64,000 nt of DNA. Origin: Klebsiella pneumoniae (lineage in GTDB: Bacteria; Pseudomonadota; Gammaproteobacteria; Eutrophobiales; Eutrophobiaceae). Below, piece after piece: positions 15,222 through 48,720 of this stretch. The notes under the pieces are model-generated. The model ran no database searches, was not told the DNA's origin, and saw only the letters and a list, made by a program, of their open reading frames with translations. Numbering within the stretch: the first letter of the stretch is position 1; each line of letters begins with the position of its first letter. A program made the translations under genes and the position numbers. The stretch is from the NCBI GenBank assembly GCA_945870865.1, contig CAMBTO010000001.1, forward strand, positions 79,487 through 143,486, given 5' to 3'.

Positions 15222-15289
15222 GACTGCATGGCCGGGTCTATTGCTCTACCCAAAGACCCGTGCCCAATAAGCCATTGGCCGGAAACAGC

Positions 15290-15808: not shown

Positions 15809-16407
15809 TAGGTTCGCTGCGCGGTAAGTTGGTCATTAAACAGGCACCACATCTGGTGGTGGATGTTGGCGGTGTCGGTTACGAAATTGAAGCCCCGATG
15901 AGTACGTTTTATAACCTGCCCCAGGCCGGTGCCGAGGTCCATATCTTTACCCACCTGGTCGTGCGCGAAGACGCACATTTATTATTCGGCTTTGCCACCG
16001 AGCAGGAACGGCGGCTATTCCGCACGCTGCTGAAGGTCAACGGCGTGGGTGCAAAGCTGGCGTTAACGATCCTGTCCGGTATTGAAACCGACGAGTTTAT
16101 CCAGTGTATCCAGACCGGTAATACTGACCGGCTGGTGCGTCTGCCGGGTATCGGCAAAAAGACGGCGGAACGGCTGGTCATTGAGATGCGTGACCGTCTG
16201 AAAGACTGGCACACGGAGCTCCCGGGCAAGCCTTTAACCGCCGGGGCAGCCAAGCCGGCATCGAGCGCGGCGGATGACGCGATCAGTGCACTGGTATCGC
16301 TCGGTTATAAACCGCAGGAGGCGAGTCGATTTGTTTATGCAGTCGCGACAGACGGGATGGACAGTGAATCGCTGATCCGGGAGGCGTTGAAGGCGTCTGT
16401 CCGGTGA
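15805..16407 (+). CDS. ruvA: Holliday junction DNA helicase RuvA
   Basis: MIGSLRGKL...VGGVGYEI...; HhH motifs LPGIGKKTAERL; overlaps the ruvC stop by 4 bp. Confidence 0.92.
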   Translation: MIGSLRGKLVIKQAPHLVVDVGGVGYEIEAPMSTFYNLPQAGAEVHIFTHLVVREDAHLLFGFATEQERRLFRTLLKVNGVGAKLALTILSGIETDEFIQCIQTGNTDRLVRLPGIGKKTAERLVIEMRDRLKDWHTELPGKPLTAGAAKPASSAADDAISALVSLGYKPQEASRFVYAVATDGMDSESLIREALKASVR

Positions 16408-24672: not shown

Positions 24673-27600
24673 TCAGGGTTTTGACTTCATCGATTCGGCA
24701 TACTCCAGCTCGGACACCAGCTGTTCCGTCTCCGCTGCGCGCGCTTTGGAAAAACGTGCCAGCAACAGATACAGCACCGGGGTCAGATACAAGGTAAACA
24801 TCGCCGCCATACCCAGCCCACCAAACACCACCCAGCCGATGGACGCAGCCGCCTCGGCACCAGCCCCACTCTCGAGTATCAACGGCAATCCACCCAACAC
24901 AGTGCATAAAATCGTCATCGTTACCGGCCGCAAGCGGATCACAGCACCTGTTTCTATCGCCTTGCGTATATCATATCCGCGGTCGCGCAACTGGTCGGCA
25001 AACTCCACGACCAATACACCATTCTTGGCCATCAGGCCTATCAGCATGACCAGACCAATCTGGGAATAGATATTCAGCGAGGTACCGGTCAGGAACAAGG
25101 CAAAAATGGCGGCAGCGATGCCGAACGGTACCAGCAGCATGACAACGATCGCGCTGGTGAACCCTTCGAATTGGGCACACAACACGAGAAACACCACCAG
25201 CAAGGCAATAATGTAGGTAATTATTACATCACGAGAGGTCTCCTCAAGCGTGGCTGCATCGCCGAGCAGGATCATCGAGACATTCGCCGGCAAAACATCA
25301 GAGGCAATCACATTTAACTGCTCTATCGCGGTCTGTAAGGGAAACCCGGGCGTAATATCAAAATCCACCTCAATGGCCCGTCGCTGTGCCTCGCGCGGGA
25401 GCTCCGAGGCGATACCCTCTTCCCGCAGTTTAACCACACTCGACAACGGTAACAGCCCGCCTGACTCAGTATCGACATACAGGTTGACCAGGTCGGATGG
25501 GTCATTAATCTCTTCTGTGGAGGCCTCCAGCAGGATGGGCACGGACTCGTCCTGGATATTCAGATCGACCACCTCGTCGCCATCTATCATGACGCGCAAC
25601 GTCTCGGCGAGGTTGTCCAGATTGATACCCAGATCCGATGCGCGTCGTCTGTCTATTTCCAGCAGCAGTTGCGGCTGGGTCGGTTCGTAGGAGATCTCTG
25701 GACTGGACAGGTCGTCCGACGTCTGTTCAACCGTGGCTGCAAATTTTTTCGCGGCGTCATAAATCTCCGCATATTCATTGCCAATCAGCGCAACGCTGAG
25801 CCGGTTACCGCCACCGCGACCCATGCCGAGACTGTTTGAGCCGGACACGGAAATCTGTAAGCCCGAGATTTGTTCAAACGCGCTGTCTAATGAGCGCATA
25901 ATCTGCTGCTGGCTACGATCACGTTCACTCCAGTCTGCCAGAGGGACGATTATCGACCCGCGATTCGGATCGTAGGTCCCGACGATTGTAAAAATGGATC
26001 GGACTTCACCACTATCGACCATCGGTGCCAGAACCTGCTCCACTTTGCGGGTCTGCTGATCCATGTATCCGATACCGACCCCGTCCGGTGCGCTCATATT
26101 GACCCTGAACATACCTCGGTCTTCGGTTGGTACAAGCTCCTGATCCAGCTGTTTGTAGACTGAGAAGGCACCTGCGGCCAGGCCCAGTGCAACCAGTATT
26201 GCAATAAACGGATGATCCAGCGTCTTGCCCAGACTGCGGGTATACAGTTGTATCAACAGGTTGCCGAGTCGGCCCATAAGACCTGACGGACGTTTCTCAC
26301 TATCGGTATCGGGCAGACGTGAGGCCATCGCCGGGACCAACGTCAGCGAGACAAAACTGGATATCGCTACAGCCAGGGCGAGTACAAACCCGAACTCACG
26401 AAACAATCTGCCAGCCGTGCCTGGCAGGAAGGCGATAGGGACAAAAACTGAAATTAGCACAACGGTTGTCGTAACGACCGCAAAGAAAACCTGCCGGGTA
26501 CCCAGTACAGCAGCCGCGCGACCACCCACATGCTGTTTGCGCCGTCGCAGGATATTTTCCAGTACCACAATTGCATCATCCACAACCAGTCCGGTGGCGA
26601 GCACCAGTGCAAACAGCGTCAGGATATTGATTGAGAAGCCGAACAACCAGATTCCGGCAATCGTACCTATCAAGGAGATCGGGATGGCGATACTGGGAAT
26701 CAGGGTGGCCCGCAACGAACCCATAAACATCCAGATCGTGGCGATAACAATCAATACGGTAATCAACATGGTAAACAACACTTCCTTGACCGAACTACGG
26801 ATAAATTCGGCATCATCATTGGTGATTACCAGCTCAATATTGTCAAAGCGTTCGTTCAGCTGATCCACTGTATTGCGGACATTGTTGGATATTTCTATAG
26901 CGTTTGATTTGGCCTTACGTATCACACCCATCGCGATGACACTGCGGCCATTCAGCCGGGTATAACGCTGGGCATCCTCAGGGCCAAAATAGACCCTGGC
27001 CACATCACCTACCCGGGTATTATCTCGGATGATGATATTGGCCACCTGCTCAGCGGTGTAGACAGAGGCATCCGCGCGGACAACAAGCTCCTGGCTCTCG
27101 GATCGGAAGCTACCCGCCGGCACATCGAACGGGGCGCGTTGCAAAGTATCGACCACGTCCGAAACGGACAGGCCGAGACTGGTTAGCCGCAACGGATCCA
27201 CTACTACGCGCAAAACGCGGTTACGTTCACCAAATAGCGAGATATCGGCCACGCCCTCTATGGAGATCAGTTCCGGCATGATGTCTTTTTCGAGGATACG
27301 GGTGATGTCTTCTTCTATCAGCGTATCGCTATAGACAGACAGATTCATGATCGGCTGCGAGTCTGAATCCGCCTTGATGATGTTGATCTCTTCAACCCGG
27401 TCCGGCAGTCGTCTTTGTACACGGCTGACGGCCTCGCGCACATCGGACGCGGCATAATCAAGGTCAGATCCAGGCTGGAACTCGATCCGGATACGCGACA
27501 CATTTTCCTCTGAGCTCGAGCTGATATTCTTGACCCCGGACACGCGGGCCACCGCCCCTTCGATGACGCTCGTCACTTCCGTATCTATCGTCTCCGGGGA

Positions 27601-27783
27601 TGCCCCGGGATAGACGACAAACACACTGACAACAGGAAAGTCGACATCGGGCAATTCGCGGACTTCCACCAGGTTCATCGCCGCCAGTCCTGCCAACGCA
27701 ATCAGCAGGTTTGCCACCATCACCAGTACAGGACGACGTATACTCAGGCCGGGCAAGTCATTGATATCAAATGACATGATCAA
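24673..27783 (-). CDS. RND-family efflux transporter permease (AcrB/HAE-like)
   Basis: 1036 aa with 12-TM RND topology and two large periplasmic loops; the N-terminus MIMSFDI...FIRRPVLV... matches the AcrB family. Confidence 0.9.
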   Translation of the reverse strand: MIMSFDINDLPGLSIRRPVLVMVANLLIALAGLAAMNLVEVRELPDVDFPVVSVFVVYPGASPETIDTEVTSVIEGAVARVSGVKNISSSSEENVSRIRIEFQPGSDLDYAASDVREAVSRVQRRLPDRVEEINIIKADSDSQPIMNLSVYSDTLIEEDITRILEKDIMPELISIEGVADISLFGERNRVLRVVVDPLRLTSLGLSVSDVVDTLQRAPFDVPAGSFRSESQELVVRADASVYTAEQVANIIIRDNTRVGDVARVYFGPEDAQRYTRLNGRSVIAMGVIRKAKSNAIEISNNVRNTVDQLNERFDNIELVITNDDAEFIRSSVKEVLFTMLITVLIVIATIWMFMGSLRATLIPSIAIPISLIGTIAGIWLFGFSINILTLFALVLATGLVVDDAIVVLENILRRRKQHVGGRAAAVLGTRQVFFAVVTTTVVLISVFVPIAFLPGTAGRLFREFGFVLALAVAISSFVSLTLVPAMASRLPDTDSEKRPSGLMGRLGNLLIQLYTRSLGKTLDHPFIAILVALGLAAGAFSVYKQLDQELVPTEDRGMFRVNMSAPDGVGIGYMDQQTRKVEQVLAPMVDSGEVRSIFTIVGTYDPNRGSIIVPLADWSERDRSQQQIMRSLDSAFEQISGLQISVSGSNSLGMGRGGGNRLSVALIGNEYAEIYDAAKKFAATVEQTSDDLSSPEISYEPTQPQLLLEIDRRRASDLGINLDNLAETLRVMIDGDEVVDLNIQDESVPILLEASTEEINDPSDLVNLYVDTESGGLLPLSSVVKLREEGIASELPREAQRRAIEVDFDITPGFPLQTAIEQLNVIASDVLPANVSMILLGDAATLEETSRDVIITYIIALLVVFLVLCAQFEGFTSAIVVMLLVPFGIAAAIFALFLTGTSLNIYSQIGLVMLIGLMAKNGVLVVEFADQLRDRGYDIRKAIETGAVIRLRPVTMTILCTVLGGLPLILESGAGAEAAASIGWVVFGGLGMAAMFTLYLTPVLYLLLARFSKARAAETEQLVSELEYAESMKSKP

Positions 27784-28862
27784 CTCTCGATTTTTACGGT
27801 CCGGTCCATCTGTTCGTATTTCCCCTGCTCACGCATGGTATGTTCAACCTTGATACCTTCATACATACGCTGTACACCCTCAACCACTACCAGATCGGCT
27901 TCCGTCAGGCTCGCATCGACGAGTACCTGGCCCTGCTGACGCTGGATGATACGCACCGGGACCCGGCTGGCCTGGCCTGCACTGACCCGCCACACGTGTG
28001 AACCATCGGCACCCCACTGCACCGCTATTTCGGGCAGGACCGGAAACGACTTGCCCCGGATATCCAGACGGACCCTGAAACTCATGCCCGGCCTGAGTCT
28101 GTCGTCCTGGTTATCCACGCTCGCTCGCACAGTGAACGTTCTTGTCAGCGGATCGATACGGCTGCCGATATCTACGACCACACCCTCGGCCGCGGTGACT
28201 TCATCATTCCATGGATTGATGGCTATCTGTTCACCTGCCTTCAGCGTACCTACCATGATCTCAGGCACTTCAAAACTGATCAGCAACGCATCACGGTTAT
28301 CTATCGTAGTAATTACCGTTGACTGATCGACACGGTCACCCGGGTCAATCTCGGCTATGCCGACGTAGCCGGCAAATGGCGCTCGAATTATCCTGTCATC
28401 CAGTGCAATCTGTGCCTGCTGCAGTTCTACCTCGGCTGTTTCAAGTGCGGTCCCGGCCGCATCCAGCACAGTCGGTAATATTGCACCACTGCCTGCGGTA
28501 CGCTCATATCGCTCATATAATTTTTTGGCGTCTTCACGCCTTATTCGGGCGAGTTCGATCGCAAGCTTCTCATTACGTGCATCAAGCTGGACCAGCACGT
28601 CTCCCTTGCTGACACTCAGTCCCGGCCCGAAATTCACGGCAACCACTTCGCCAGACGCAAGCGGAGTAATAGTGACAGACTGGATGGCACGCGAGGTTCC
28701 GACCGCCTCTATACGGGTCAACTCATCGGAAAATCTGACCTGCTCAACTAGGACGGCAACTGTTTTATCAGCACCCCGTCCCCGGGCAGTCTCTGATGGT
28801 TCATTCGTGCATCCGGCCAGGACAAACAAGCCTACGAGGGCGATACCTGCAACTCTTAACAT
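27780..28862 (-). CDS. RND efflux periplasmic adaptor (membrane fusion protein), lipoprotein
   Basis: Lipobox LAGC; HlyD/MFP coiled-coil hairpin and beta-barrel domains; overlaps the permease start by 4 bp. The probable start is the Met at 28862. No outer-membrane factor gene is adjacent. Confidence 0.85.
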   Translation of the reverse strand: MLRVAGIALVGLFVLAGCTNEPSETARGRGADKTVAVLVEQVRFSDELTRIEAVGTSRAIQSVTITPLASGEVVAVNFGPGLSVSKGDVLVQLDARNEKLAIELARIRREDAKKLYERYERTAGSGAILPTVLDAAGTALETAEVELQQAQIALDDRIIRAPFAGYVGIAEIDPGDRVDQSTVITTIDNRDALLISFEVPEIMVGTLKAGEQIAINPWNDEVTAAEGVVVDIGSRIDPLTRTFTVRASVDNQDDRLRPGMSFRVRLDIRGKSFPVLPEIAVQWGADGSHVWRVSAGQASRVPVRIIQRQQGQVLVDASLTEADLVVVEGVQRMYEGIKVEHTMREQGKYEQMDRTVKIES

Positions 28863-29305
28863 ATTTTCTATCTTCTGTAGTAGTACTGTGAGATGGCATA
28901 TCATCAACACGCCTGACGACATGCATGCATATTAACCGCTGCAGGCCACAGGAAATATCGAATACGACCCTGACAGACCAATATTCACAATAAATCCACT
29001 ATTGCAGTTATTTATGTCACATAATATGCAGAATTAAATCGTAATGTACCCTGCGTGAAATTGCTGTGAAATTAGTGGCAGAGTAACAACGCGTTTATGA
29101 AACATACTAAATACTTTTTGACCCGACCCAGGCCTGACCACAGAAACCGGCATTAACTTCTATACTGGCCTGCACCAAAATAGATCCCCTGCCCTTAACG
29201 TATAACTTCCACGAGCGGATAGCACTGTTTCTGGGCAGCGTAGCCGTGCCTCTGCCCTGATTTATATACTGGCCACCACCTGCCGCTGATTTCCGTGCTG
29301 TTGTT

Positions 29306-29761
29306 TTGTTTCTCATGTCGAGGGTGCCGAACCGCTTTTTGTTATCAAAATTGAAGATTCTGAATGAATTCCGTCATATACAGCCCGGATGGAAACAAGT
29401 GTTGATAGCCATTGCCCTGAAAATGATCGGCCGGATCGGCACGTTTCTGGAATTGTTCCTGATACTCATCGTGCTTGATATCGATCCAGACTTTGTCGAT
29501 GTCGTGCTGGTCGAAGCGCTAGTTATGGTCAACGTCTGCCTGTTTTTCTTTATCCTACTGGAACTGGGTGTAAATGAGGCCGGCATCCTGGCCGATTTTT
29601 CCATCGCCGGACTTGCCGCAGCAAGTGGCATAGCGTTTGGTCTGCTGCGTCGAGCAAGAATGATTACCTATACGCTGACAGGCCTGTGCGTTTATGTGCT
29701 GGGTACGACTACCCGGTTTGGCAGCCAACCTTACCGTAATCAGGACCAGTCTTTACCCTGA
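29306..29761 (+). CDS. hypothetical small membrane protein (weak PsiE-like pattern)
   Basis: 151-aa ORF with hydrophobic segments and a faint resemblance to PsiE (ELVE.LVV..L.F..I.L). There is no strong RBS and it is uncertain. Confidence 0.3.
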   Translation: MFLMSRVPNRFLLSKLKILNEFRHIQPGWKQVLIAIALKMIGRIGTFLELFLILIVLDIDPDFVDVVLVEALVMVNVCLFFFILLELGVNEAGILADFSIAGLAAASGIAFGLLRRARMITYTLTGLCVYVLGTTTRFGSQPYRNQDQSLP

Positions 29762-29765
29762 AGGG

Positions 29766-30950
29766 TCAGCGGGACAGACCGACCAGCTCGGTAAATGCAC
29801 TGCACAGTCTCTCTATCTGTTCCGGTGTATGTGCTGCACTGAGGCTGCAACGTATCAACGGTCTCCCGTCCGGTGCGGCCGGAGGGAAGATCAGGTTCAC
29901 GTAAACCCCGCGTTCCATCAGCGCACTCCACAAGGTCACGGCCTGTGGTGGCGTATCCAGTTGGGCGGCTATTACCGGGCCGGCCACTGGCCCGACCCGA
30001 TATCCCTGTTCTTTCAAACAGGAATATAGCCGGTTTGCATTTATCCAGAGGCGTTCACGTAAATGGTTACCGTCACGCAGCAGTATCAATGCCGCCCGTG
30101 CAGAGGCAATATTCGATGGCGACGGGGATGCGGTAAAAATATAGGGCCGACTCAGATAACGCATCAAATCGAGTTGTTCATGGTTACTGACGCAATAGCC
30201 GCCGATACTGCCGAGACTCTTGCTGAATGTGCCGGTGATAAAGTCGACCTGATCGGTCACGCCGGTCTCTTCAACCAGACCCTGCCCGGTCCTGCCGAGC
30301 ACACCCAGTGAGTGCGCTTCATCTATCAGCATGTAACTTCCATGTGCCTTTGTGACATTGACCATTTCCGGCAACGGCGCCTTGTCACCGAGCATGCTGT
30401 AAATACCTTCAACAATGACCAGTGTTGACCGTGCTCGATCACCCAGACGGGCGAGCCTCTTGTCGAGGTCAGCGGCATCGTTGTGGCGGAACCGGATCAC
30501 TTCGGCGCCACTCAAACGACACCCGTCATAGATGCTGGCATGGCAGTGTGCATCTATCATTAATACATCACCCTGCCCTGCCAATCCGGAAATCGTGCCC
30601 AGGTTGCCCTGATACCCGGTTGAAAAGACCACGGCATGTTTGCAGTTGTAAAATTCTGCAAACTCCCGTTCCAGTGCGCGGTGGCCTTCATAATTTCCAT
30701 TGGCCATACGGGAGCCGGTCGTGCCGGTACCTTCTTCATCAATCGCCTTGTGTGCAGCAGCGATACATTCCGGCGCAAACGTCAGTCCGAGATAATTGTT
30801 CGTACCTGCCAGTAATACGCGTTTGCCAGCTATACTGGCCTCGGTTGCTGAATACATTTTTTCTATCGGTGTACCGAAGATCGATGGACGGATCTCAAGC
30901 AACGCCTTGCGGTCATCACCAAACACGGAAAATTTATCAAACAGATCCAT
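29766..30950 (-). CDS. spt: serine palmitoyltransferase-like alpha-oxoamine synthase (PLP-dependent)
   Basis: About 50% identity along its length to Sphingomonas SPT as I recall it (GTNNYLG, GSRM.NG, VVFSTGY.NLG, EVIRFRHND..DLDKRL, EGIYSMLGD.APL, IDEAHS.G, TFSKS PLP-lysine motif, RPYIFTAS, ERLW, GVYVN, IRCSLSAAHTPEQI). Confidence 0.85.
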   Translation of the reverse strand: MDLFDKFSVFGDDRKALLEIRPSIFGTPIEKMYSATEASIAGKRVLLAGTNNYLGLTFAPECIAAAHKAIDEEGTGTTGSRMANGNYEGHRALEREFAEFYNCKHAVVFSTGYQGNLGTISGLAGQGDVLMIDAHCHASIYDGCRLSGAEVIRFRHNDAADLDKRLARLGDRARSTLVIVEGIYSMLGDKAPLPEMVNVTKAHGSYMLIDEAHSLGVLGRTGQGLVEETGVTDQVDFITGTFSKSLGSIGGYCVSNHEQLDLMRYLSRPYIFTASPSPSNIASARAALILLRDGNHLRERLWINANRLYSCLKEQGYRVGPVAGPVIAAQLDTPPQAVTLWSALMERGVYVNLIFPPAAPDGRPLIRCSLSAAHTPEQIERLCSAFTELVGLSR

Positions 30951-31201
30951 TATTTTTCTGACTCTATACGTTCAATCATACGGGCAAGATCACTGACCAG
31001 TTGCACTTCGGCCATCAGGTTAAGTGGAATGGAGATATCAAACTCATCCTCGATTTCCATAATCAAATCCAGAATCTTCACTGAATCGAGCGCAAACTGA
31101 TCCACCAGATTTGTATCGGGTCGGATCTCGGCCCCTGACCCGGCAATGCGCTCGAGATGTTTGCTTATCCTTTGCAGTGTATTTTCATAATTGTCTGTCA
31201 T
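30950..31201 (-). CDS. dedicated acyl carrier protein
   Basis: 83 aa with the phosphopantetheine attachment context LDSV within a helical acidic protein. It is translationally coupled to the downstream SPT gene, sharing one nucleotide between stop and start. Confidence 0.8.
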   Translation of the reverse strand: MTDNYENTLQRISKHLERIAGSGAEIRPDTNLVDQFALDSVKILDLIMEIEDEFDISIPLNLMAEVQLVSDLARMIERIESEK

Positions 31202-31211
31202 ATCAATCCCG

Positions 31212-32138
31212 TCACTGTAGATTCAAAGGCAATACTGCCTCGTGTAACGCATCCTGTAATTGTCTCTTTGGCCGCCAGCCTGTCGCTCGCGTCAGCTTGT
31301 CTGAATCGCACACCCAGTCGGTATGCTGTAATTCACGTACCTTGCCTGGCGTCAACATCGGTGAATAACGGAACAAACGCGCCAGCGCAAGGTTCGCTCT
31401 GGCGACTGCGCTGATGATGCTGGCAGGGACAGGCAGACTGTGTACCGGTCGTGTCCAGACCTGACTTGCAATTTGTTTTACGGCGTCGTGATCATATCCC
31501 CCGGGCGTCCCATCATCAAGCTCATAGATTCCGGCAATCGGTTCGTCTGCATTCAACCAGGACAGAATTGCCTCGACCAGATCATTAACATACAGCAGGC
31601 CGAACCTTGAGGATTTCGCTCCGGTCAGTGGTAACAAGCCAAGGCGTGTCGCACGAAATATCGGTGCCATCTCGCGATCGCCTGGACCATAAACGGCAGT
31701 TGGTCGAAATATGGTCCACTGGTTCATTCCAGCGTGTCTTATCAGGTATTGTTCTGCCTGGAACTTGCTATCTGCGTACCATGACAGTTGTGGTTCGCGC
31801 GCTGCCAGCGAGGACATCAGCAGAAACCGTGCATGAGGAACCCTGCTTGATACCGAATCAAGCAGATTGGCGGTACCATCAAGATTGGTCTTCAGGAAGT
31901 CTGCTGATGAACTGCCACGGACGCGGCCGGCGCAGTGAATTACGTAATCTGTTTCAGCCACAAGTTGATACAGCGCATCTTTATCTTCAAGTGTGCCGGT
32001 AATCCAGTGCAGGTTTTTACTGTCGGCTTGTGGCTTTCGCGTTAGCGCACGGACTGCCCAGCCCGCGGAGGTCAATTTGTGTATCAGGTTTTTGCCGATG
32101 AAACCGGTGGCGCCGGTGACCGCCACGCGTCCTGACAT
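31212..32138 (-). CDS. NAD(P)-dependent epimerase/dehydratase-family reductase (candidate 3-ketosphinganine / ceramide reductase)
   Basis: Rossmann motif VAVTGATGFIGKNL and the extended-SDR catalytic Y..xK context (YADSK). Confidence 0.8.
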   Translation of the reverse strand: MSGRVAVTGATGFIGKNLIHKLTSAGWAVRALTRKPQADSKNLHWITGTLEDKDALYQLVAETDYVIHCAGRVRGSSSADFLKTNLDGTANLLDSVSSRVPHARFLLMSSLAAREPQLSWYADSKFQAEQYLIRHAGMNQWTIFRPTAVYGPGDREMAPIFRATRLGLLPLTGAKSSRFGLLYVNDLVEAILSWLNADEPIAGIYELDDGTPGGYDHDAVKQIASQVWTRPVHSLPVPASIISAVARANLALARLFRYSPMLTPGKVRELQHTDWVCDSDKLTRATGWRPKRQLQDALHEAVLPLNLQ

Positions 32139-32141
32139 GTA

Positions 32142-33899
32142 TCAGTAACGGGCGTCCGGCTGGGCTGATTGCTGGCTGCTGGGGAATCCGGTCCTTTTCA
32201 TGAAGCCCTGACATGCGGCTGCGCGTGACAGTTTTCCTGAAGAGGTGCGCGGAAGTGTATGTGGAGGCACTAGCTCAACCAGACAATGTACGCCGAATGC
32301 AGTGTATACCAGTCTCTGTAATCGGCTCATCAGGGCCTGACGTTCCTGAACAGCTGTCAGGCGGCATTCTATGACAAGCACAACAGTTGAAACATCGTTT
32401 GCATCAACAACAGCAAACGCCGAGGTCTCGCGCATCCTGATCTCCGGCTGTTGCTCCGCGATTTCTTCAATGTCCTGGGCGCGAATATTACGGCCATTGA
32501 TTATGATAATGTCCTTGTGACGACCGGTCAGATACAGATTGCCCTCAGATACAAAACCGAGATCACCGGTGTCCATCCAGTTGTCAGGCTTCATCACCCG
32601 GCTGGTTGTCTCCGGGTCATTGATATACCCGGACATGATACTGGGCCCTTTCAGCATGACGCGACCCACACGCAGATCCGGTAAAGCCTGGCCCTGACCA
32701 TCGACAATCGAAACAAAGTGACCCGGTAAGGGTCTGCCACAATTGACAAATTCGTTATGTTTTCTACCCTCTGCCTGTACACGCACAGCAACCCCACGTT
32801 CAGCCAGCGCCTCTGTATCTACCTTCATCACGTCCAGGCCTGTTCCCACCCTAGAGAAGGTCACTGCGAGAGAGGCTTCAGCAAGTCCGTAACATGGCAG
32901 GAAAGCCAACGGGTTGAATCCGACTGATTCAAATTTACTGGCGAAATTTTTCAGTACATCAGGCCGGATCATCTCGGCACCAATACCAGCAGCACGCCAG
33001 CTGCTCAGATCCAGACCTTCCAGATCCGCGCTACGCACCCTGAGGGCACACAGTTGCAGACCAAAAGGCGGACAAAATGCGATCGTGCAACGGTTACGAC
33101 TGATTAATCTGAGCCACTGGATCGGACGAACAGCGAAATCGCGGGTACGCAGGAAATCTACTGACAACTGCGAGACCAGTGGGGACAGGACCAGGCCAAT
33201 CAATCCCATATCATGGTAAAACGGCAACCAGGATGCACAGCGATCACTCGGGTATATGGCAAGCCCGTCACGGACGATACCTTGCAGGTTACTCATGATG
33301 GCCAATTCGGTGATGATGACGCCCTGCGGTGCGCGGGTACTACCGGAGGTAAACTGCAGATAGGCTATCTCGTCCCGCCGACTTTTCTGCATCGGCAGAT
33401 CCGATTCGGGAAGCTGCGCCAGCTGTCCCGGCGTACCGGTCCAGCGCACACTGCCTACCTCCCGGCTGGCCTCTTCAAGAAAAGATATAAAGTCCTTGTT
33501 TGCAATTGCCATGCTGGCATTGCTAATGTTGAGCATGGCACCTAACTGCCGAACATATATGTCGTGGCTACCCAGATTGACAGGTATAGGCATGGCAAAT
33601 GGAACCAGACCCGCATAGCGACAGGCAAAAAACAGGATAATAAACTCGGGGGATGTGTCTGCAATAATCGCGATAGTTTCTCCGCGTTTCAGGCCGAGAC
33701 CCAGCAAACGTCTTGCTGTAGAAATCGCGTCCTGGCGCAGTTGCTTGTAGGTAAGCACTTGCCTGAGCACGCCCCGTGCATCATAGAAGTTGTAGCCGGT
33801 CGACCCTGTTGCAGCATAGTCGAGCGCATCCGTCAGTGTCTCGAAGTCCGCCAGTCGCTGTGACAAAAGGTTCAGCGTTCCGGTTGGTTCAAGAACCAC
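32142..33899 (-). CDS. fatty acyl-AMP ligase / acyl-ACP synthetase (adenylate-forming enzyme)
   Basis: AMP-binding core motifs (FTSGSTRAPQGV, ...YGLAE..., TGD.G); 585 aa; first gene of a tight four-gene operon with 3-10 bp gaps. Confidence 0.85.
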   Translation of the reverse strand: MVLEPTGTLNLLSQRLADFETLTDALDYAATGSTGYNFYDARGVLRQVLTYKQLRQDAISTARRLLGLGLKRGETIAIIADTSPEFIILFFACRYAGLVPFAMPIPVNLGSHDIYVRQLGAMLNISNASMAIANKDFISFLEEASREVGSVRWTGTPGQLAQLPESDLPMQKSRRDEIAYLQFTSGSTRAPQGVIITELAIMSNLQGIVRDGLAIYPSDRCASWLPFYHDMGLIGLVLSPLVSQLSVDFLRTRDFAVRPIQWLRLISRNRCTIAFCPPFGLQLCALRVRSADLEGLDLSSWRAAGIGAEMIRPDVLKNFASKFESVGFNPLAFLPCYGLAEASLAVTFSRVGTGLDVMKVDTEALAERGVAVRVQAEGRKHNEFVNCGRPLPGHFVSIVDGQGQALPDLRVGRVMLKGPSIMSGYINDPETTSRVMKPDNWMDTGDLGFVSEGNLYLTGRHKDIIIINGRNIRAQDIEEIAEQQPEIRMRETSAFAVVDANDVSTVVLVIECRLTAVQERQALMSRLQRLVYTAFGVHCLVELVPPHTLPRTSSGKLSRAAACQGFMKRTGFPSSQQSAQPDARY

Positions 33900-34247
33900 A
33901 GATGTTTCGCTTAAAAGCTGACCACCTTCAGTATCTGCTGAAAGCGTCTCTAATTTACTTATTTCTGATATCAGAGTTAATACTCCTCATAGAAATGCGT
34001 TCTATCCCGCTGATAATATAAAGGATTTATATACAAATTTCCAGTATTTCTTCGTTTAGCCTCTCATCCACGCAACAAAGAGACATTTTGAGTACAACGC
34101 CATTTTTTCAAAAAGGCGGAGTTTAAAGTATTCTGCATATCTGATGCTAGTATTATTTAACAGCTAGATTACAACCCACGGCAATTTGCGGGCTACTGGC
34201 TACCACACCTGCTGATATCACCAACTGGCAATTGTCTTGTATCTAGC

Positions 34248-35492
34248 GTGTTATCCCCCCTGTTTTCGCGGGTTGATATGAATAATTATGTTACTCTTGA
34301 CGTCATTTTTCATCCTCTGGACTGCATCTTGAATATGGGTCTGACAGCTAGAAAACAAACAACCTCGACGTCAGTAGACGTCAGGCCAGTGCTGACGGGA
34401 AGAGACTGGCGGACTTTCATCAATTTACCCTGGTATATCTATCAGGACGACGCCAACTGGGTACCACCACTACGACTTGAACGTCGCCTGCATTTTTCGA
34501 GGATGAACCCATACTTCAGAAATGCTGAGTGGCAAGCCTGGATAGCCTACAAGGACAACAGGCCGGTCGGCAGGATCAGCGCCCAGGTTGATAGGGTTAA
34601 CCGTCAATATCATGGAGAACATACCGGTCATTTTGGTCTGCTAGAGGGCATTAATGACCCTGCCGTGTTCGCCGCCTTGACCCAAACCAGTGAAGAATGG
34701 CTGTCTCAGCGTCAGACTCACCATATTTCCGGCCCATTCAGCTTTTCCATTAACCAGGAGTGCGGGGTGCTGGTTGACGGTTTTGATACTCCGCCGGTCA
34801 TACTTATGCCCCACTCGCGCCAGTGGTACGGGCTGATGCTGGAACAACAGGGTTACACACCGGCAATGGACATGCTCGCCTACTGGATTGAAACCGGATT
34901 TGAAGCATCTCGCGTTATGAAAACACTGGTGGCAAGGTTTGACAAACGTATACATCTGCGTCATTTGCGCCGCAAACAGTACTCAGAGGAGATGGAAATC
35001 CTGCGTGATATTTTTAACGACGCCTGGTCAGGTAACTGGGGATTTATCCCGTTCAGCAAGGAGGAGTTTGCTGATCTTGGTAACAGTCTGCGATTTTTTA
35101 TTGCGGACGACTTTGTGCAGATAGCTGAACTCGATGGCAATCCGGTCGCGTTTGTCGTGGTACTGCCCAACCTTAACGAGATGCTCACCCGGCTGGACGG
35201 CAGCTTGTTTCCATTGGGATGGTACCGCTTGTACCGCGCGATGAGACAGAAAAGCTTCCGTACCGGCCGCGTACCGCTGATGGGAGTACGTAAACAGTAC
35301 CAGAACAGCTCGCTGGGGCTGACCCTGGCACTGATGGTCTGTAATGCTGCACGGGTCTGTGCACGGGCGACAGGAATTGAAGCGGTTGAAATGTCGTGGA
35401 TACTCGAAAACAACCGGGGCATGCGCAGCATACTCGATAATATTGGCAGCAAGGAGTACAAACGTTTCCGCATTTATGAAAAGTCTCTGTAA
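34248..35492 (+). CDS. GNAT-fold-like acyltransferase of unknown specificity; candidate bacterial ceramide synthase
   Basis: 414-aa ORF, divergently transcribed from the SPT operon. Its C-terminal half has acyl-CoA N-acyltransferase-like segments (FVVVLPNLNEM...RQKSFRTGRVPLMGV...). The assignment is by context, not by a recognised motif. Confidence 0.5.
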   Translation: MLSPLFSRVDMNNYVTLDVIFHPLDCILNMGLTARKQTTSTSVDVRPVLTGRDWRTFINLPWYIYQDDANWVPPLRLERRLHFSRMNPYFRNAEWQAWIAYKDNRPVGRISAQVDRVNRQYHGEHTGHFGLLEGINDPAVFAALTQTSEEWLSQRQTHHISGPFSFSINQECGVLVDGFDTPPVILMPHSRQWYGLMLEQQGYTPAMDMLAYWIETGFEASRVMKTLVARFDKRIHLRHLRRKQYSEEMEILRDIFNDAWSGNWGFIPFSKEEFADLGNSLRFFIADDFVQIAELDGNPVAFVVVLPNLNEMLTRLDGSLFPLGWYRLYRAMRQKSFRTGRVPLMGVRKQYQNSSLGLTLALMVCNAARVCARATGIEAVEMSWILENNRGMRSILDNIGSKEYKRFRIYEKSL

Positions 35493-35570
35493 CTCTACTG
35501 GCCCTGAGTTCGACAGGCTTGTGTCAGTCAACAATGATGTTCAAGTCTGTCACCTGGAAATCTGTCTGCC

Positions 35571-36653
35571 GTGAAAACACTGGGGCGATACATTAGTATA
35601 GAGATCTTCCGACCATTTGTGGTTATCAGCCTGATTCTTGCCGGATTGTTTTCCAGCTTTAATGCCGCGCGTTATCTTGAGACGGCCGTAACAGAATCAC
35701 TGGGAATGTCTCTGATCTTCAAACTGATAATGCTTAAAACCGTCATTGCCATGGAGGTACTGTTTCCGATCGCGTTCTACGCAGCCATTATCGTGGCACT
35801 TGGCCGTATGCATAGGGACCAGGAAATTATCGTAATGAAGTCGGCCGGTATAAATGAAACCTTCCTCATTAAAACTGTTATCACACTGGGTATACCAGTC
35901 GCAATCATGACAGGCATGTTGTCAATGTACGGCAGGCCATTGGCATACGACACTATCTACAGAATGGACAATAACGCCAGTAACGAGCTGGATGTGGATC
36001 GTTACCAGGCAGGACGGTTCTACGGTATCGAAAACAGTGGTCGTATCATCTATATCAACAGCAGAAACAACCGTGACCACATGCTTGAAGGCGTATTTCA
36101 CTACATCCGTCAGGACAACCGTAGTGATATTATCCTTGCCCGACAGGGCTACCAGGTCCGGAAAGGGCAATATCAACCACCGGAACTGCACCTGCTTGAT
36201 GGCAGCCTGTACCGTATCGTTCCTGGCGGCTCACGTGAATCAATAATCCATTTTTCCAGGTTTGTTTTCATTCCGGATGCAGACATAGCGATTGACTATC
36301 AGCGCAAGGCGGCACCAACACTGGACCTCGGGGACTCTGTCGACAGCCGCGACATTGCTGAATTCCAGTGGCGAATCTCCAGACCGTTCGCCACGATGTT
36401 ACTGGCGCTGGTAGCGATACCGCTAAGCCGAACCGCCCCGCGACAGGGCAAGGGAGAAAAGGCGGTCTCTGCTGCTGTAATTTTTGCCCTCTACTACAAC
36501 CTGAGTGGTCTGGCCCAGACCTGGGTCGAGCAGGGTACTGTTGGCAGCGTGCCCGGTGTATGGTGGCTGCATATGAGCATGCTTGTTTTTGTGATATGGG
36601 TACTTGCACCCGGATTTTCCAGAAAACCTGCCGGTGCACATGTACATACTTGA
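35571..36653 (+). CDS. lptF: LPS export ABC transporter permease LptF
   Basis: YjgP/YjgQ family with a GTG start; MKTLGRYISIEIFRPFVVISLILAGLF... and a periplasmic beta-jellyroll between TM3 and TM4. Confidence 0.85.
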   Translation: MKTLGRYISIEIFRPFVVISLILAGLFSSFNAARYLETAVTESLGMSLIFKLIMLKTVIAMEVLFPIAFYAAIIVALGRMHRDQEIIVMKSAGINETFLIKTVITLGIPVAIMTGMLSMYGRPLAYDTIYRMDNNASNELDVDRYQAGRFYGIENSGRIIYINSRNNRDHMLEGVFHYIRQDNRSDIILARQGYQVRKGQYQPPELHLLDGSLYRIVPGGSRESIIHFSRFVFIPDADIAIDYQRKAAPTLDLGDSVDSRDIAEFQWRISRPFATMLLALVAIPLSRTAPRQGKGEKAVSAAVIFALYYNLSGLAQTWVEQGTVGSVPGVWWLHMSMLVFVIWVLAPGFSRKPAGAHVHT

Positions 36654-37704
36654 TCGATATCTGATGAAGCAGGTTGCGCAAGGGATTGTTATCTCTACGC
36701 TGGTATTACTGCCCCTGTTCAGCTTTCTGGATCTGGTCGACCAGCTGGATGATGTGGGCACCGGCTTTTACCGCACCAGTGATGCATTCCTGTATGTTGT
36801 CATGACTCTGCCGCGCAGGTTTATCCAGCTGACCCCGTTTATTGCATTGCTTGGAAATGTGACGGCACTCGGCAGACTTGCGATTAACCATGAGCTGATC
36901 TCCCTGCGTTCAGCCGGATATTCTCCGGTACAGATCAGCATGGCATCTTTGAAGGTGGGACTCGTGCTGCTGGCGCTGATTTTTACACTTGAAATATATA
37001 TTGCGCCCCCGCTGCAACAAAAGGCCATTGCCCATCGTGCGGCGGCGATGGAACAAAGCGCCGAACTTGGAAAAAATCTGGGTATCTGGACCCGGAATGA
37101 CCGGCAGATCCTGCGCATAGGCAATTTGCAGCATGATACCAGACAGGCAAGTGTTGAAATTATCAATCTTGATGAACAGGGAAACATGTCTGAATATTTA
37201 CATGCTGAAGGTTTCGAGATCGCCAGCAATGAAGAATGGATATTGCACCAGGTAACGCGCAAGATATATACTGAGGACAACATCCGGTCGACCACGATGG
37301 ATCGATTGCCCTGGAATACCTTTCTGAATCCCGCCCAGATATCAACACTGACCAAACCACAGGAAAGCCTGTCTCCGGTCGAACTTTTCCGCTATGTCCA
37401 GCATTTACAGTCAACCGGGCAGGAAGTCGATGTATACCAGCTGTCGCTGTGGAAAAAACTGGGCGGACCACTAACGATGCTGGGGATGTTGTTGTTATCG
37501 GTACCGTTCGTGTTTGGTTCGGTTCGTACAGGTTTTGCGAACCGGCTGGTAATGGCGGGCGTTACCGGAATAACCGTCTATCTGCTCGACCAGATCTTTT
37601 CCAACACCGGGCTGATATTGAATCTGAATCCTTCGTTTATCGCGTTGACGCCTGGCATACTTTTGATCTGGATAGCACGGGTCTGGTTACGGCGTGTCCC
37701 CTGA
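36640..37704 (+). CDS. lptG: LPS export ABC transporter permease LptG
   Basis: MYILDRYLMKQVAQGIVISTLVLLPLFSFLDLVDQLDDVG: the canonical LptG N-terminus. It overlaps lptF by 14 bp. Confidence 0.85.
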   Translation: MYILDRYLMKQVAQGIVISTLVLLPLFSFLDLVDQLDDVGTGFYRTSDAFLYVVMTLPRRFIQLTPFIALLGNVTALGRLAINHELISLRSAGYSPVQISMASLKVGLVLLALIFTLEIYIAPPLQQKAIAHRAAAMEQSAELGKNLGIWTRNDRQILRIGNLQHDTRQASVEIINLDEQGNMSEYLHAEGFEIASNEEWILHQVTRKIYTEDNIRSTTMDRLPWNTFLNPAQISTLTKPQESLSPVELFRYVQHLQSTGQEVDVYQLSLWKKLGGPLTMLGMLLLSVPFVFGSVRTGFANRLVMAGVTGITVYLLDQIFSNTGLILNLNPSFIALTPGILLIWIARVWLRRVP

Positions 37705-37736
37705 TTATTTTCATGTCTGAATAACTGAACCCTTTT

Positions 37737-38720
37737 ATGTACATATCAGCTGCTGACAAGTTATACCCACAAAATACGGCCATTTTACTGAACCCGCATG
37801 GCGGCAGGATACGCAAACGCCTGGGTCGCATACGCGAGCTCGCAGCGGCAATACCCGGTGCAATCGTGTGCGAAACAGACAATCTCGCAGACATGAACAG
37901 GACCCTTGATGAGCTGGCAGAACGCGGCGTGGGTCATCTGGTGATCGCCGGTGGTGATGGAACGGTGCAGGCCGTGCTGAACCGCCTGTTCACCGGCAAA
38001 CTCTGGTCCCGCCTGCCACTGGTCAGTATAGTCCCTGGTGGAACAACGAATATGACAGCATCTGATCTTGGTACATCCAGCAACCCTGAAAAGTGTCTGC
38101 AACAACTGGGCAGATGCCTGCAGAACGCAATGGATGTCAGGCTGGTAACGCGATCTGTTTTGAAAATCCGGCAGAATCAACAGCCGGATATTCATGGCAT
38201 GTTTTTCGGTGCCGGTTTGATAGCGCACGGTTCTGCATATTTTCACAAGCATATAAAAAAGTCCGGGCTAACCGGTGAGTCCGGTTCTGCTTTTGTGATG
38301 CTGCGTATGCTGTCAGGACTGCTGACTGGCCGCAATGCAGACGAGCGTGCCCAAATCCGGATCCAGATAACGGATGACACCGGTCACACCAGGGTATGCA
38401 ACTCTATGTTGCTGTTTACCAGCACGCTGGATCGCTTGCTGCTCGGGCTACGTCCGTATTGGGGTGGTGGTAATGGAGCTATCCATACTACCTGCCTGCG
38501 CGAGCATCCTCTCCGGTTGTGGCGATCGTTACTGACCATCGTTTGTGGTCGTGGCAACTCCCTGGACGAAAATAACGGTTATTACAGCAGAAATAACAGT
38601 GCAATTGAGCTGCTTATGGACGCCAGCTTTATTGTTGATGGTGAGTTTTTTGTTTGCGAAAGCAGGCATGGTCCGCTCAGGATTAGCCAGGCTGGCCCGG
38701 TCCGCTTTTTACTCCCCTGA
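37737..38720 (+). CDS. diacylglycerol-kinase-catalytic-domain lipid kinase (YegS / sphingosine-ceramide-kinase-like)
   Basis: DAGK_cat signature HLVIAGGDGTVQAVLNRL and a preceding NP.GG motif (LLNPHGGR). Confidence 0.8.
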   Translation: MYISAADKLYPQNTAILLNPHGGRIRKRLGRIRELAAAIPGAIVCETDNLADMNRTLDELAERGVGHLVIAGGDGTVQAVLNRLFTGKLWSRLPLVSIVPGGTTNMTASDLGTSSNPEKCLQQLGRCLQNAMDVRLVTRSVLKIRQNQQPDIHGMFFGAGLIAHGSAYFHKHIKKSGLTGESGSAFVMLRMLSGLLTGRNADERAQIRIQITDDTGHTRVCNSMLLFTSTLDRLLLGLRPYWGGGNGAIHTTCLREHPLRLWRSLLTIVCGRGNSLDENNGYYSRNNSAIELLMDASFIVDGEFFVCESRHGPLRISQAGPVRFLLP

Positions 38721-38746
38721 AATCCTCATGAGTATCATTCCGTAAC

Positions 38747-39706: not shown

Positions 39707-39746
39707 ATCCCGGCGCTTAGTTGAACACAGGAAACGCGAGCAGACC

Positions 39747-40517: not shown

Positions 40518-40590
40518 ATGTGTTACCCGAATCAGGTGGTAGCTTCTGAACCAGCAGTAGATTCCTGGAAACGATTTTAAATAACGGGAT

Positions 40591-48696: not shown

Positions 48697-48720
48697 CCCA
48701 ACTTTAAAACGGAGACTAAA

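Follow-up and report, generated by a model that had tools for sequence, protein, structure and literature searches.

A region of approximately 10.8 kb (positions 29766–40517) in the window, that is, the whole 64,000-nucleotide stretch of DNA analysed here, contains ten genes arranged in two divergent operons. We regard this region as a probable chromosomal sphingolipid locus of an uncultured gammaproteobacterium (probability approximately 0.8), in which the minus-strand core, aasR-cerR-acpR-spt, would constitute one half. The plus-strand row consists, in order, of cerS, an lptF-like gene, an lptG-like gene, and genes for a CpgB-like kinase, a Tam41-like nucleotidyltransferase, and an OlsC/LpxO-like hydroxylase. 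The sequences show directly that the genes are present, that curated models place them in their families, that catalytic motifs are conserved, that the order is colinear with the Escherichia coli module, and that many genomes share the arrangement. The initial annotation had described the four minus-strand genes as a complete operon, a unit that is too small, since the locus includes cerS and spans ten genes in two operons. A distant relative (L001) and Pseudomonas sp. MPB23 (L080) keep the ten-gene order, and Salinisphaera aquimarina (L062) keeps it almost entirely.

The five-gene module (the core and cerS) has been published for alpha-, beta-, and gammaproteobacteria, including E. coli BL21, Azotobacter, and Pseudomonas luteola (PMC9386255, PMC11324152), and is present in 4068 of the 5426 complete E. 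coli genomes. The earlier remark that sphingolipids are not classically linked to the class of the host is not supported in view of these reports. Gammaproteobacteria, most E. coli among them, are already known to carry this module, so the locus belongs to a documented type and is not a surprise.

The four-gene core

Four minus-strand ORFs are listed at 29766–33899. In coordinate order, the first pair overlaps by 1 nt, and the following pairs are 10 nt and 3 nt apart. The ORFs and the family models agree with the initial annotation in giving four packed genes for an acyl-AMP ligase, a reductase, an ACP, and an SPT homologue. The aasR gene (32142–33899, minus strand) encodes a 585-residue fatty acyl-AMP ligase/acyl-AcpR synthetase, which scores 826 bits with the NCBIfam model NF006624 "fatty acyl-AMP ligase" (cut-off 600) and is 47% identical to the FAAL of the E. 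coli island.

The cerR-type gene (31212–32138, minus strand) encodes an extended SDR of 308 residues that matches PF01370 (NAD-dependent epimerase/SDR) at 6e-28 and possesses GATGFIG and YADSK motifs. Its top PDB matches are NDUFA9 or NDUFA9-like subunits, and likeness to NDUFA9 has also been reported for Caulobacter CerR (PMC11087976). The identity with the product of the E. coli "epi" gene is 43%. The acpR gene (30950–31201, minus strand) encodes a dedicated acyl carrier protein of 83 residues with a PP-binding domain (PF00550, 8.4e-10) and the phosphopantetheine-serine motif DSV at residues 39–41. AcpR scores below every cut-off of the housekeeping AcpP profile models and is 42% identical to the ACP of the E. 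coli island. In 81 of the 86 loci, the gene directly precedes spt.

The order aasR-cerR-acpR-spt, colinear in 53 of the 63 species loci, is that of CC_1165–CC_1162 in Caulobacter and ECD_02851–02854 in E. coli (PMC9386255), which bears out the Caulobacter-type gene set proposed originally. Judging from the sequences, the core is a well-described proteobacterial starter operon for sphingolipid (ceramide) synthesis, of known type.

Identity and active site of SPT

The spt gene (29766–30950, minus strand) encodes a PLP-dependent alpha-oxoamine synthase of 394 residues with an Aminotran_1_2 domain. The protein scores 600.3 bits with NF047599 "serine palmitoyltransferase" (cut-off 500), whereas the BioF (323 bits), KBL (310 bits), and CqsA-type (220 bits) models each remain under their own cut-offs. 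The best NCBIfam model is one named SerpalmtaseBetaP. The best solved relatives are the Sphingomonas SPTs (PDB 2x8u, E = 1.6e-125), so that by both model scores and PDB matches the protein sides with SPT rather than with BioF, KBL, or CqsA. The similarity to Sphingomonas SPT is clear as had been claimed, but it is not "very high" at 50.6% identity with 2x8u.

The positions corresponding to Arg378 and the other active-site residues of Sphingomonas SPT (SpSPT) should be noted. In the alignment, His137, Asp210, His213, Lys244, and Arg367 correspond to His159, Asp231, His234, Lys265, and Arg390 in SpSPT, whose roles have been described (PMC6148460). Phe355 occupies the position of Arg378, and the "swinging" arginine for the serine carboxylate is absent. 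The equivalent arginine is also absent from the aligned beta/gamma-clade SPTs from E. coli, Nitrosospira, and the metagenome relatives.

FAAL-ACP-AOS cassettes are known from natural-product pathways too. The core could be read as a generic lipid-amine module, in which serine is not the substrate of the alpha-oxoamine synthase or the product is a related non-sphingolipid amino lipid, such as a long-chain base that is 1-deoxy or derived from glycine/alanine, or a sulfonolipid-like compound. The replacement by Phe355 of Arg378, which forms a salt bridge with the serine carboxylate in Sphingomonas SPT (PMC6148460), and the presence of a cysteate acyltransferase (28eh, 2.5e-54) among the weaker PDB matches would fit this reading. 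However, no non-SPT model exceeds 323 bits against 600 bits for the SPT model, all the residues named as required are kept, and the substitution at Arg378 also occurs in proteins from E. coli and Nitrosospira that carry the name SPT at NCBI. In vivo testing of AcpR/AasR pairs together with SPT has been reported (PMC9386255) and may also argue against it, and the linked bCerS-, CerR-, and CpgB-type genes make sense solely for a ceramide-like product. We consider a product not derived from serine, or not a sphingolipid, improbable.

Candidate ceramide synthase and the divergent region

The cerS gene (34335–35492, plus strand) is divergently transcribed 435 bp from aasR and encodes a tandem-GNAT acyl-CoA N-acyltransferase of the YghO/bCerS type. 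The protein is approximately 385 residues long, with alternative starts of the ORF at 34248 or 34278; homologues have approximately 383 residues. CerS and E. coli YghO share 47% identity along the full length (E = 7e-136), and YghO is the listed orthologue of Caulobacter CC_1154 (PMC9386255). The best PDB folds for the AF2 model (pLDDT 76) are the tandem GNATs 7q3a, 2wpw, and MshD. A divergent cerS beside aasR is found in 23 of the 55 loci. The initial annotation had the ceramide synthase encoded separately, but this YghO/bCerS-type gene adjoins the ligase gene.

The AT-rich intergenic region between aasR and cerS (33900–34334, GC 0.37–0.44) is presumed to be a two-way promoter. A promoter scan gave one weak sigma-70-like match per strand, not above chance.

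Genes downstream of cerS

The lptF-like gene (35571–36653, plus strand; 360 residues, TIGR04407 319 bits) and the lptG-like gene (36640–37704, plus strand; 354–366 residues, TIGR04408 308 bits, with the start at 36640 taken from the L081 gene call) encode cluster-linked ABC permeases of the "LptF2" and "LptG2" types. The LptF-like protein scores 154 bits with LptF of the E. coli island versus 67 bits with that of K-12, and the LptG-like protein 198 versus 140 bits. With the single K-12 pair as the housekeeping reference, the sequences place the permease pair nearer to the island paralogues. The lptF-like gene is syntenic with cerS in 34 loci, and the Caulobacter cluster likewise includes LptF2/LptG2 (PMC11324152).

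The next gene (37737–38720, plus strand) encodes a DAGK_cat lipid kinase of 327 residues (PF00781, 1.7e-18), a candidate ceramide kinase of the CpgB/CC_1160 type. It has a GGDG motif at residues 72–75, a motif described in PMC10331486. The protein is far under the YegS cut-offs, and its family profile matches DgkB, YegS, and BmrU. The kinase gene lies beside spt clusters in 16 loci, including those of the alphaproteobacteria L077 and L078, where the order spt, Tam-like gene, kinase gene mirrors CC_1162, CC_1161, CC_1160.

The Tam41-like nucleotidyltransferase gene (38747–39706, plus strand; 319 residues) adjoins the kinase gene in every case in the locus comparison and is a candidate of the CC_1161 (CpgC) type. 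Its Pfam Tam41_Mmp37 score (23.5 bits) is slightly lower than the cut-off (24), and a profile of 15 cluster-linked homologues matches Tam41 (6ig2) at 4e-5; both matches are marginal. CC_1161 has been described with a CDP-DAG-synthase-like domain (PMC11324152). The last gene (39747–40517, plus strand) encodes an OlsC/LpxO-like lipid acyl hydroxylase of the Asp/Asn beta-hydroxylase family (256 residues; PF05118, 1.6e-53), which scores below the cut-offs of both the OlsC (261 bits, cut-off 450) and LpxO (144 bits, cut-off 500) models. This gene is retained in the cluster in L001, L080, L045, L062, and L076.

Comparison with known clusters

The E. coli island (ECD_02850–02854 in BL21(DE3)), also from a gammaproteobacterium, has the five genes arranged as in the locus, with a divergent yghO and an adjoining LptF/LptG-like pair. 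The five biosynthetic proteins are 42–53% identical and the Lpt pair 32–34%. The pair is downstream of spt in E. coli, whereas in the window it comes after cerS and belongs to the cerS operon. Homologues of the kinase, the Tam41-like protein, and the hydroxylase, all present in the window, are absent from the 5-kb flanks of the E. coli module.

The Caulobacter crescentus cluster (CC_1152–CC_1168) has aasR (CC_1165), cerR (CC_1164), acpR (CC_1163), and spt (CC_1162) in the same order; by description, CC_1154, CC_1160/CpgB, CC_1161, and CC_1156/1155 (LptF2/G2) are the counterparts of cerS, the kinase gene, the Tam41-like gene, and the permease genes. Both clusters thus share a cerS of the GNAT type, a kinase of the DAGK type with GGDG, a gene whose product has a CDP-DAG-synthase-like domain, and LptF/LptG of a second type (PMC9386255, PMC11324152, PMC10331486), a likeness based on published descriptions and gene position. 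In contrast, cerS is eight genes off in Caulobacter, and the hydroxylase, of the OlsC/LpxO type and clustered in the window, is reported to be of the DesA family and encoded elsewhere in Caulobacter (PMC11324152). No counterparts of CC_1159, CC_1158, CC_1153, CC_1152, LptC2, and CC_1166 were found in the window; the full CPG2 head group requires CC_1159, CC_1153, and CC_1152.

Contiguous ceramide/CPG clusters in gammaproteobacteria have already been described for Azotobacter vinelandii and Pseudomonas luteola (PMC11324152). In L080, the ten homologues occur together and their relative order is unchanged (hydroxylase, Tam41-like, kinase, lptG, lptF, and cerS, diverging from aasR, cerR, acpR, and spt), though the protein identities with the window are only 30–59%. 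L080 has an MsbA-like ABC exporter gene and a sulfatase/EptA-like gene after spt, whereas the window has just an MprF-flippase-like remnant.

Proposed pathway

The chemical steps, the hydroxylase substrate, and the LptFG cargo are inferred from published work on Caulobacter. AasR would adenylate a fatty acid and load it onto the dedicated AcpR, and SPT would condense the acyl-AcpR with L-serine to give 3-oxosphinganine with loss of CO2. The YghO/bCerS-type N-acyltransferase would add the second acyl chain, and the NDUFA9-like CerR would reduce the 3-keto group, yielding dihydroceramide; published accounts disagree on whether acylation or reduction comes first. The plus-strand genes after cerS would most likely decorate and export the lipid. 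The CpgB-like kinase most likely generates ceramide-1-phosphate, and the Tam41-like protein most likely activates the phosphate head group or extends it towards an anionic lipid of the ceramide-phosphoglycerate type. Acyl chain hydroxylation is the most likely role of the OlsC/LpxO-like dioxygenase, as is feeding of the product towards the outer membrane for the permease pair. The E. coli module genes have been equated with CC_1154 and CC_1162–1165, which are genetically required for dihydroceramide (PMC9386255). Orthology to CC_1154, CC_1160, CC_1161, and CC_1164 is indirect, drawn from the E. coli proteins, the positions of the genes, and the published domain content.

Genomic context and host

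The initial annotation implied a self-contained four-gene operon recently acquired by a Pseudomonas-like host, with cerS elsewhere in the genome. The tight packing on one strand and the AT-rich spacers on the operon's flanks are consistent with such a unit. So are the Nitrosomonadaceae (e.g., Neut_0458–0461), the closest relatives with a named genus or family (SPT 64–69% and AasR 66–68% identity, cultured Nitrosospira and Nitrosovibrio included), which have the core in the same order alone within 10 kb of spt; cerS, lptFG, and the kinase and Tam41-like genes, contiguous in the window, are outside that range, and cerS of N. eutropha is located elsewhere (PMC9386255). However, in the window the YghO/bCerS homologue on the opposite strand is followed by five genes that recur with the cluster elsewhere.

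The AT-rich spacers are real (GC 0.37–0.45 at 28850–29150 and 33800–34250), but as ordinary intergenic or promoter sequence they do not suggest acquisition. Neither GC nor GC3 of the locus falls outside the values spanned by the flanking housekeeping genes. The locus lies between the same flanks in L001 (tol-pal-queEC on one side and mltF on the other), whose housekeeping proteins are 49–70% identical to those of the window, and the divergence of the locus is similar. Nothing indicates recent acquisition. The host is an uncultured gammaproteobacterium and not Pseudomonas-like: hprK follows rpoN, the Pseudomonas SPTs are only 57–59% identical, and the AspS relatives with a source name are uncultured Gammaproteobacteria or Pseudomonadota/Proteobacteria MAGs, with no named genus among the best 120. 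The four-gene operon in a Pseudomonas-like host is thus quite improbable, and the ten-gene locus is preferred.

An intact but cryptic or decaying locus, normally unexpressed or losing function and giving little or no sphingolipid, is very improbable: although the neighbouring LPG_synthase_TM gene is cut to its last ~133–150 codons and E. coli strains with the module are not known to produce sphingolipids, all ten ORFs are full-length and intact, SPT and AasR reach 96–100% identity among several independent metagenome contigs from the lineage, and colinearity and motifs are kept in relatives at 60–75% identity, the latter two observations indicating purifying selection. The truncated gene is the sole flippase-like neighbour of the cluster. 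This remnant (29306–29761, plus strand) encodes the C-terminal ~133–150 residues of a 552-residue MprF-flippase-like membrane protein, covers only positions 177–299 of the 302 in the Pfam profile, and corresponds to residues 409–541 of the intact gene product in L001.

Core operon and serine palmitoyltransferase

The four packed minus-strand genes that the initial annotation placed at 29766–33899 appear at exactly these positions in the ORF list, and their families match by both Pfam and NCBIfam. In the order of coordinates, they are spt (29766–30950, 394 aa), acpR (30950–31201, 83 aa), a cerR-type reductase gene (31212–32138, 308 aa), and aasR (32142–33899, 585 aa). The acpR and spt genes overlap by 1 nt, and the other two junctions are gaps of 10 and 3 nt. 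An Rfam scan of the whole window gave a tRNA-Lys only, with neither riboswitches nor leader RNAs in the locus, and a promoter and terminator scan of 28800–40800 gave counts not above those of shuffled sequence.

The spt product has a class I/II aminotransferase fold and scores 600.3 bits against NF047599, the NCBI model for serine palmitoyltransferase of the proteobacterial "rhodobacterial" type (curated cut-off, 500). The scores of the same protein are 323 bits for BioF, 310 for KBL, 228 for ALAS, and 220 for the CqsA type, each under its own cut-off. Among PDB matches, Sphingomonas serine palmitoyltransferases (SPTs) reach 394–422 bits, KBL reaches 219 bits at best, and CqsA 127 bits. The test that had been set against the SPT assignment was a grouping with BioF, KBL, or CqsA, which is not observed; SPT models and PDB SPTs score highest, and these scores rule out a BioF, KBL, or CqsA identity. 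The similarity to Sphingomonas SPT had been described as very high. Sphingomonas enzymes are indeed the best solved matches, but the identity to the S. wittichii SPT, at 50.6%, is solid rather than very high.

In the alignment, Lys244, His137, Asp210, His213, and Arg367 correspond to the PLP lysine and to His159, Asp231, His234, and Arg390 of S. paucimobilis SPT (SpSPT), respectively; the latter four residues are required, and their roles are reviewed in PMC6148460. The position of the "swinging" Arg378 of Sphingomonas SPT should be noted. This residue, in the PPATP loop, forms a salt bridge with the serine carboxylate in the external aldimine and is not among the residues required for catalysis (PMC6148460). 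The corresponding residue in the window SPT is Phe355. At this position, the aligned SPTs of E. coli, Nitrosospira, and other members of the beta/gamma clade have Leu or Phe, so that Phe355 characterizes this clade and is not peculiar to the window gene. The 394-aa protein is assigned, on its sequence, to the SPT family and is predicted to condense L-serine with acyl-AcpR or acyl-CoA to 3-oxosphinganine.

Carrier protein, ligase, and reductase

AcpR matches the PP-binding carrier protein family (PF00550) at 8.4e-10, with a DSV motif at residues 39–41 that holds the phosphopantetheine Ser, and scores under all cut-offs for housekeeping AcpP in NCBIfam. An ACP gene lies directly upstream of spt in 81 of the 86 loci. 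The 83-aa protein is therefore grouped apart from housekeeping AcpP, as a putative specialized ACP of the AcpR type. AasR, a fatty acyl-AMP ligase (FAAL), scores 826 bits against NF006624 (cut-off, 600) and is 47% identical to the E. coli ECD_02851-type FAAL by BLASTP, which points to membership of the AasR class of FAAL-type acyl-ACP synthetases for this 585-aa protein.

The reductase belongs to the NAD-dependent epimerase/SDR family and carries GATGFIG and YADSK motifs. Its best PDB matches are NDUFA9 or NDUFA9-like subunits, and Caulobacter CerR (CC_1164/CCNA_01222) is likewise homologous to NDUFA9 (PMC11087976). The gene is located between aasR and acpR, the position of the epimerase gene in E. 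coli, and the two proteins share 43% identity by BLASTP. The extended SDR type, the NAD(H) site, the NDUFA9 homology, and the gene position all argue for a CerR assignment of the 308-aa protein.

Ceramide synthase gene

Divergent from aasR, a plus-strand gene at 34335–35492 (cerS) encodes a GNAT-like protein of the YghO/bCerS type. Its probable start is 34335, which gives 385 aa, close to the ~383 aa of homologues; the gene caller chose 34278. By BLASTP, the product aligns with E. coli YghO along its entire length at 47% identity (E = 7e-136), and YghO is listed as the orthologue of Caulobacter CC_1154 (CCNA_01212), an N-acyltransferase/ceramide synthase (PMC9386255). The AlphaFold model (pLDDT 76) is a tandem GNAT; the best solved folds are 7q3a (Foldseek against the PDB, E = 4e-15), 2wpw, and MshD. 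Through YghO and the literature, the product is placed in the bCerS family, with N-acylation of a long-chain base as its predicted reaction. The initial annotation had the ceramide synthase encoded separately. Since a tandem-GNAT gene matching YghO adjoins aasR, the predicted synthase is not encoded elsewhere; it is the very next gene.

Head-group, hydroxylase, and LptFG genes

The plus-strand row was overlooked when the locus was delimited as four genes, and this extent is too small: all five ceramide genes and the head-group, hydroxylase, and LptFG genes lie within ~10.8 kb. Downstream of cerS, Pfam and NCBIfam identify an lptF-like gene (35571–36653) and an lptG-like gene (36640–37704). For the window LptF, the score is 154 bits with the island copy of E. 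coli and 67 bits with K-12 LptF; the corresponding values for LptG are 198 and 140 bits, the K-12 pair being the one housekeeping pair compared. Because the window pair is nearer to the island copies than to the K-12 pair, its reading as LptF2/G2 is supported within this limited sampling. Genes for both proteins are syntenic with sphingolipid genes in 32–34 loci, and the Caulobacter sphingolipid region also carries second copies of LptF and LptG (PMC11324152).

The next gene (37737–38720, plus strand) encodes a DAGK_cat lipid kinase (PF00781 at 1.7e-18) with a GGDG motif at residues 72–75. Against the YegS models it scores 31–39 bits, far under the cut-offs of 284–387, so that YegS identity is ruled out; the profile of the kinase family matches DgkB, YegS, and BmrU. 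In 16 loci, some of them alphaproteobacterial, the kinase gene accompanies an spt cluster. Ceramide kinase activity has been demonstrated for CC_1160/CpgB (CCNA_01218), which also carries GGDG (PMC10331486), and the window kinase is a candidate of this CpgB type that fits the Caulobacter picture.

The 319-aa product of the following gene (38747–39706, plus strand) matches Pfam Tam41_Mmp37 marginally, at 23.5 bits, just below the cut-off of 24. A profile of 15 cluster-linked homologues matches the Tam41 CDP-DAG synthase 6ig2 (E = 4e-5), and the gene always adjoins the kinase gene in the loci compared. Ceramide phosphoglycerate in Caulobacter depends on CC_1161 (CpgC), whose domain is described as CDP-DAG-synthase-like (PMC11324152); the 319-aa protein is a candidate for this type, which again agrees with the Caulobacter arrangement. 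Genes of the CC_1159 (CDP-alcohol phosphatidyltransferase), CC_1153 (CofC-like), and CC_1152 (LicD-like) types were found neither by Pfam and NCBIfam among the larger ORFs of the window nor among the precomputed Pfam matches for genes of its contig (L081). Because homologues of these three genes are not found there, the full CPG2 head group is not predicted from the window alone.

The last gene of the plus-strand operon (39747–40517) encodes an Asp/Asn-beta-hydroxylase-family protein, which scores 261 bits for OlsC and 144 bits for LpxO. Both values are below the cut-offs, and equivalog status with either enzyme is ruled out. Genes of the OlsC/LpxO family recur in the clusters of the nearest relative (L001, a Gammaproteobacteria MAG), Pseudomonas sp. 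MPB23 (L080), Salinisphaera aquimarina (L062), L045, and L076. The substrate is possibly the ceramide acyl chain.

Conservation and proposed pathway

A scan with one genome per species gave at least 597 SPT relatives, of which the best 80 (54–74% identity) were examined by tBLASTn searches of their loci with the window proteins. Of the 63 loci whose upstream sequence is long enough, 53 have the colinear core aasR-cerR-acpR-spt. Where this sequence extends over at least 9 kb (55 loci), 23 have a divergent cerS beside aasR, 16 also have LptF and LptG, and three have all ten genes (L001, with an SPT 74% identical to that of the window, L080, and L062). Two alphaproteobacterial loci, L077 and L078 (Dongia soli), have spt followed first by the Tam41-like gene and next by the kinase gene, mirroring CC_1162, CC_1161, and CC_1160. 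In Nitrosomonadaceae, the vicinity of spt has only the four-gene core, in agreement with the published N. eutropha locus.

The E. coli locus, found by a DNA-level match, has yghO divergent from the genes for FAAL, epimerase, ACP, and SPT, followed by an lptG/lptF pair. By BLASTP, the window SPT and ACP are 53% and 42% identical to their E. coli counterparts. Padilla-Gomez et al. gave yghO/ECD_02850 and ECD_02851–02854 of E. coli BL21 as the counterparts of CC_1154 and CC_1165–CC_1162 (PMC9386255), and orthology to the Caulobacter proteins is here assigned through these E. coli homologues and the literature. In alpha-, beta-, and gammaproteobacteria, spt always co-occurs with genes for ACP and the synthetase (PMC9386255), and contiguous ceramide/CPG/transport clusters have been described in Azotobacter vinelandii and Pseudomonas luteola (PMC11324152). 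By megablast, the five-gene E. coli module is present over at least 80% of its length in 4068 of 5426 complete E. coli genomes; RefSeq names its spt product serine palmitoyltransferase, and a second lptG/lptF pair adjoins the module in E. coli E62 (L086, NZ_CP022393.1 1276051–1289278). The view that gammaproteobacteria are a class not classically associated with sphingolipids is out of date, in the light of these genomes and of both publications (PMC9386255, PMC11324152).

By analogy with Caulobacter, AasR would load a fatty acid onto AcpR, and SPT would join the acyl-AcpR with serine to give 3-oxosphinganine. The YghO/bCerS-type GNAT would then N-acylate, and CerR would reduce the 3-keto group; PMC11087976 and PMC9386255 disagree on which of these reactions comes first. 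The kinase would form ceramide-1-phosphate, the Tam41-like enzyme would activate or extend the head group, the dioxygenase encoded by the hydroxylase gene would hydroxylate an acyl chain, and the LptFG-like pair would export the lipid product. One more uncultured gammaproteobacterial lineage joins the growing number of bacteria for which ceramide and phosphoceramide synthesis is predicted. The current picture is unchanged by this locus, as its gene set, order, presence in gammaproteobacteria, and proposed horizontal spread are already published.

Host and origin of the locus

The host had been described as a Pseudomonas-like gammaproteobacterium, and the two parts of this description fare differently. 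Relatives of the window AspS are 73–91% identical; those with a source name are labelled as uncultured Gammaproteobacteria or, more broadly, Pseudomonadota/Proteobacteria MAGs, with no named genus among the best 120. These labels support the class but not the likeness to Pseudomonas. Among the matches listed, Pseudomonas SPTs are only 57–59% identical to the window SPT. On the plus strand at 47227–50539, rpoN is followed ~0.8 kb downstream by hprK, for HPr(Ser) kinase/phosphatase. Such an arrangement is not known from Pseudomonas or enterobacteria, and it is one reason why the host is not considered Pseudomonas-like.

Recent acquisition had been suggested from the AT-rich spacers around the operon. 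The genes of the locus have GC contents of 0.50–0.54 (acpR, 0.44) and GC3 values of 0.48–0.58, and the flanking genes have 0.49–0.61 and 0.53–0.72, respectively (rpoN, 0.50/0.54; pal, 0.54/0.53). The locus is therefore comparable with the neighboring housekeeping genes, and a compositional signal of horizontal transfer is ruled out. No integrase or transposase gene is found in or beside the locus, and the sole tRNA of the window is 21 kb away. In L001 the locus is flanked, as in the window, by tolB-pal-ybgF-queE-queC and, at its opposite end, by mltF, and the identities between the window and L001 are 49–70% for housekeeping proteins and 44–74% for proteins of the locus. The same site and flanks and the comparable divergence indicate that the locus has been resident since before the two lineages split. 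Recent acquisition is contradicted by these observations, and the AT-rich spacers are no more than normal intergenic sequence. A horizontal origin has been proposed for gammaproteobacterial clusters (PMC11324152), and the window locus may have an older one, before the lineage split.

Possible role in sphingolipid transport

No flippase or transporter has been identified for the movement of bacterial sphingolipids to the outer membrane (PMC11087976). Canonical lptC-lptA-lptB genes lie 8 kb from the LptF/LptG-like pair of the cerS operon. One reading is that the LptFG pair would be the dedicated, or only, inner-membrane extractor passing an anionic hydroxylated phosphoceramide to the Lpt bridge, that the hydroxylase would be a not-yet-described ceramide acyl-chain hydroxylase, and that an MprF-like gene remnant beside spt would be a lost flippase. 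We regard this combination as rather unlikely, at roughly one chance in four. If it is true, the locus is a compact, testable system for studying how sphingolipids reach the bacterial outer membrane. Follow-up is worthwhile only for the LptFG pair, the hydroxylase, and the lost flippase-like gene. The layout is unusually compact and would be well suited as a construct for heterologous reconstitution and for tests of sphingolipid export by LptFG paralogues.

Neighboring genes

The remnant (29306–29761, plus strand) comprises only the C-terminal ~133–150 codons of a 552-aa LPG_synthase_TM (MprF-flippase-like) gene. An intact LPG_synthase_TM gene adjoins spt in L001 (11192–12850). In the window, a minus-strand RND efflux pair (24673–28922), consisting of a membrane-fusion protein and a pump, sits where the N-terminal part would be, and the same truncation is found in all contigs of the lineage (L081–L085). 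In L080, the region directly after spt (11197–16153) encodes an MsbA-like ABC exporter, at the position matching the remnant, two small proteins, one with a weak Thymidylate_kin match and the other with no Pfam match, and a sulfatase/EptA-like protein. Lineages thus vary in their accessory genes for transport and the head group.

Farther from the locus, a 725-aa minus-strand ORF (2964–5141) with no Pfam or NCBIfam match adjoins a family-2 glycosyltransferase gene (5199–5909). At the left end of the window, a plus-strand ORF (15–1865) encodes a flavoprotein of the phenol 2-monooxygenase family (NF006144, 1036 bits) and is followed by a gene for a PepSY_TM protein. Since the first ~32 profile positions are unmatched, this ORF probably continues past the left end.
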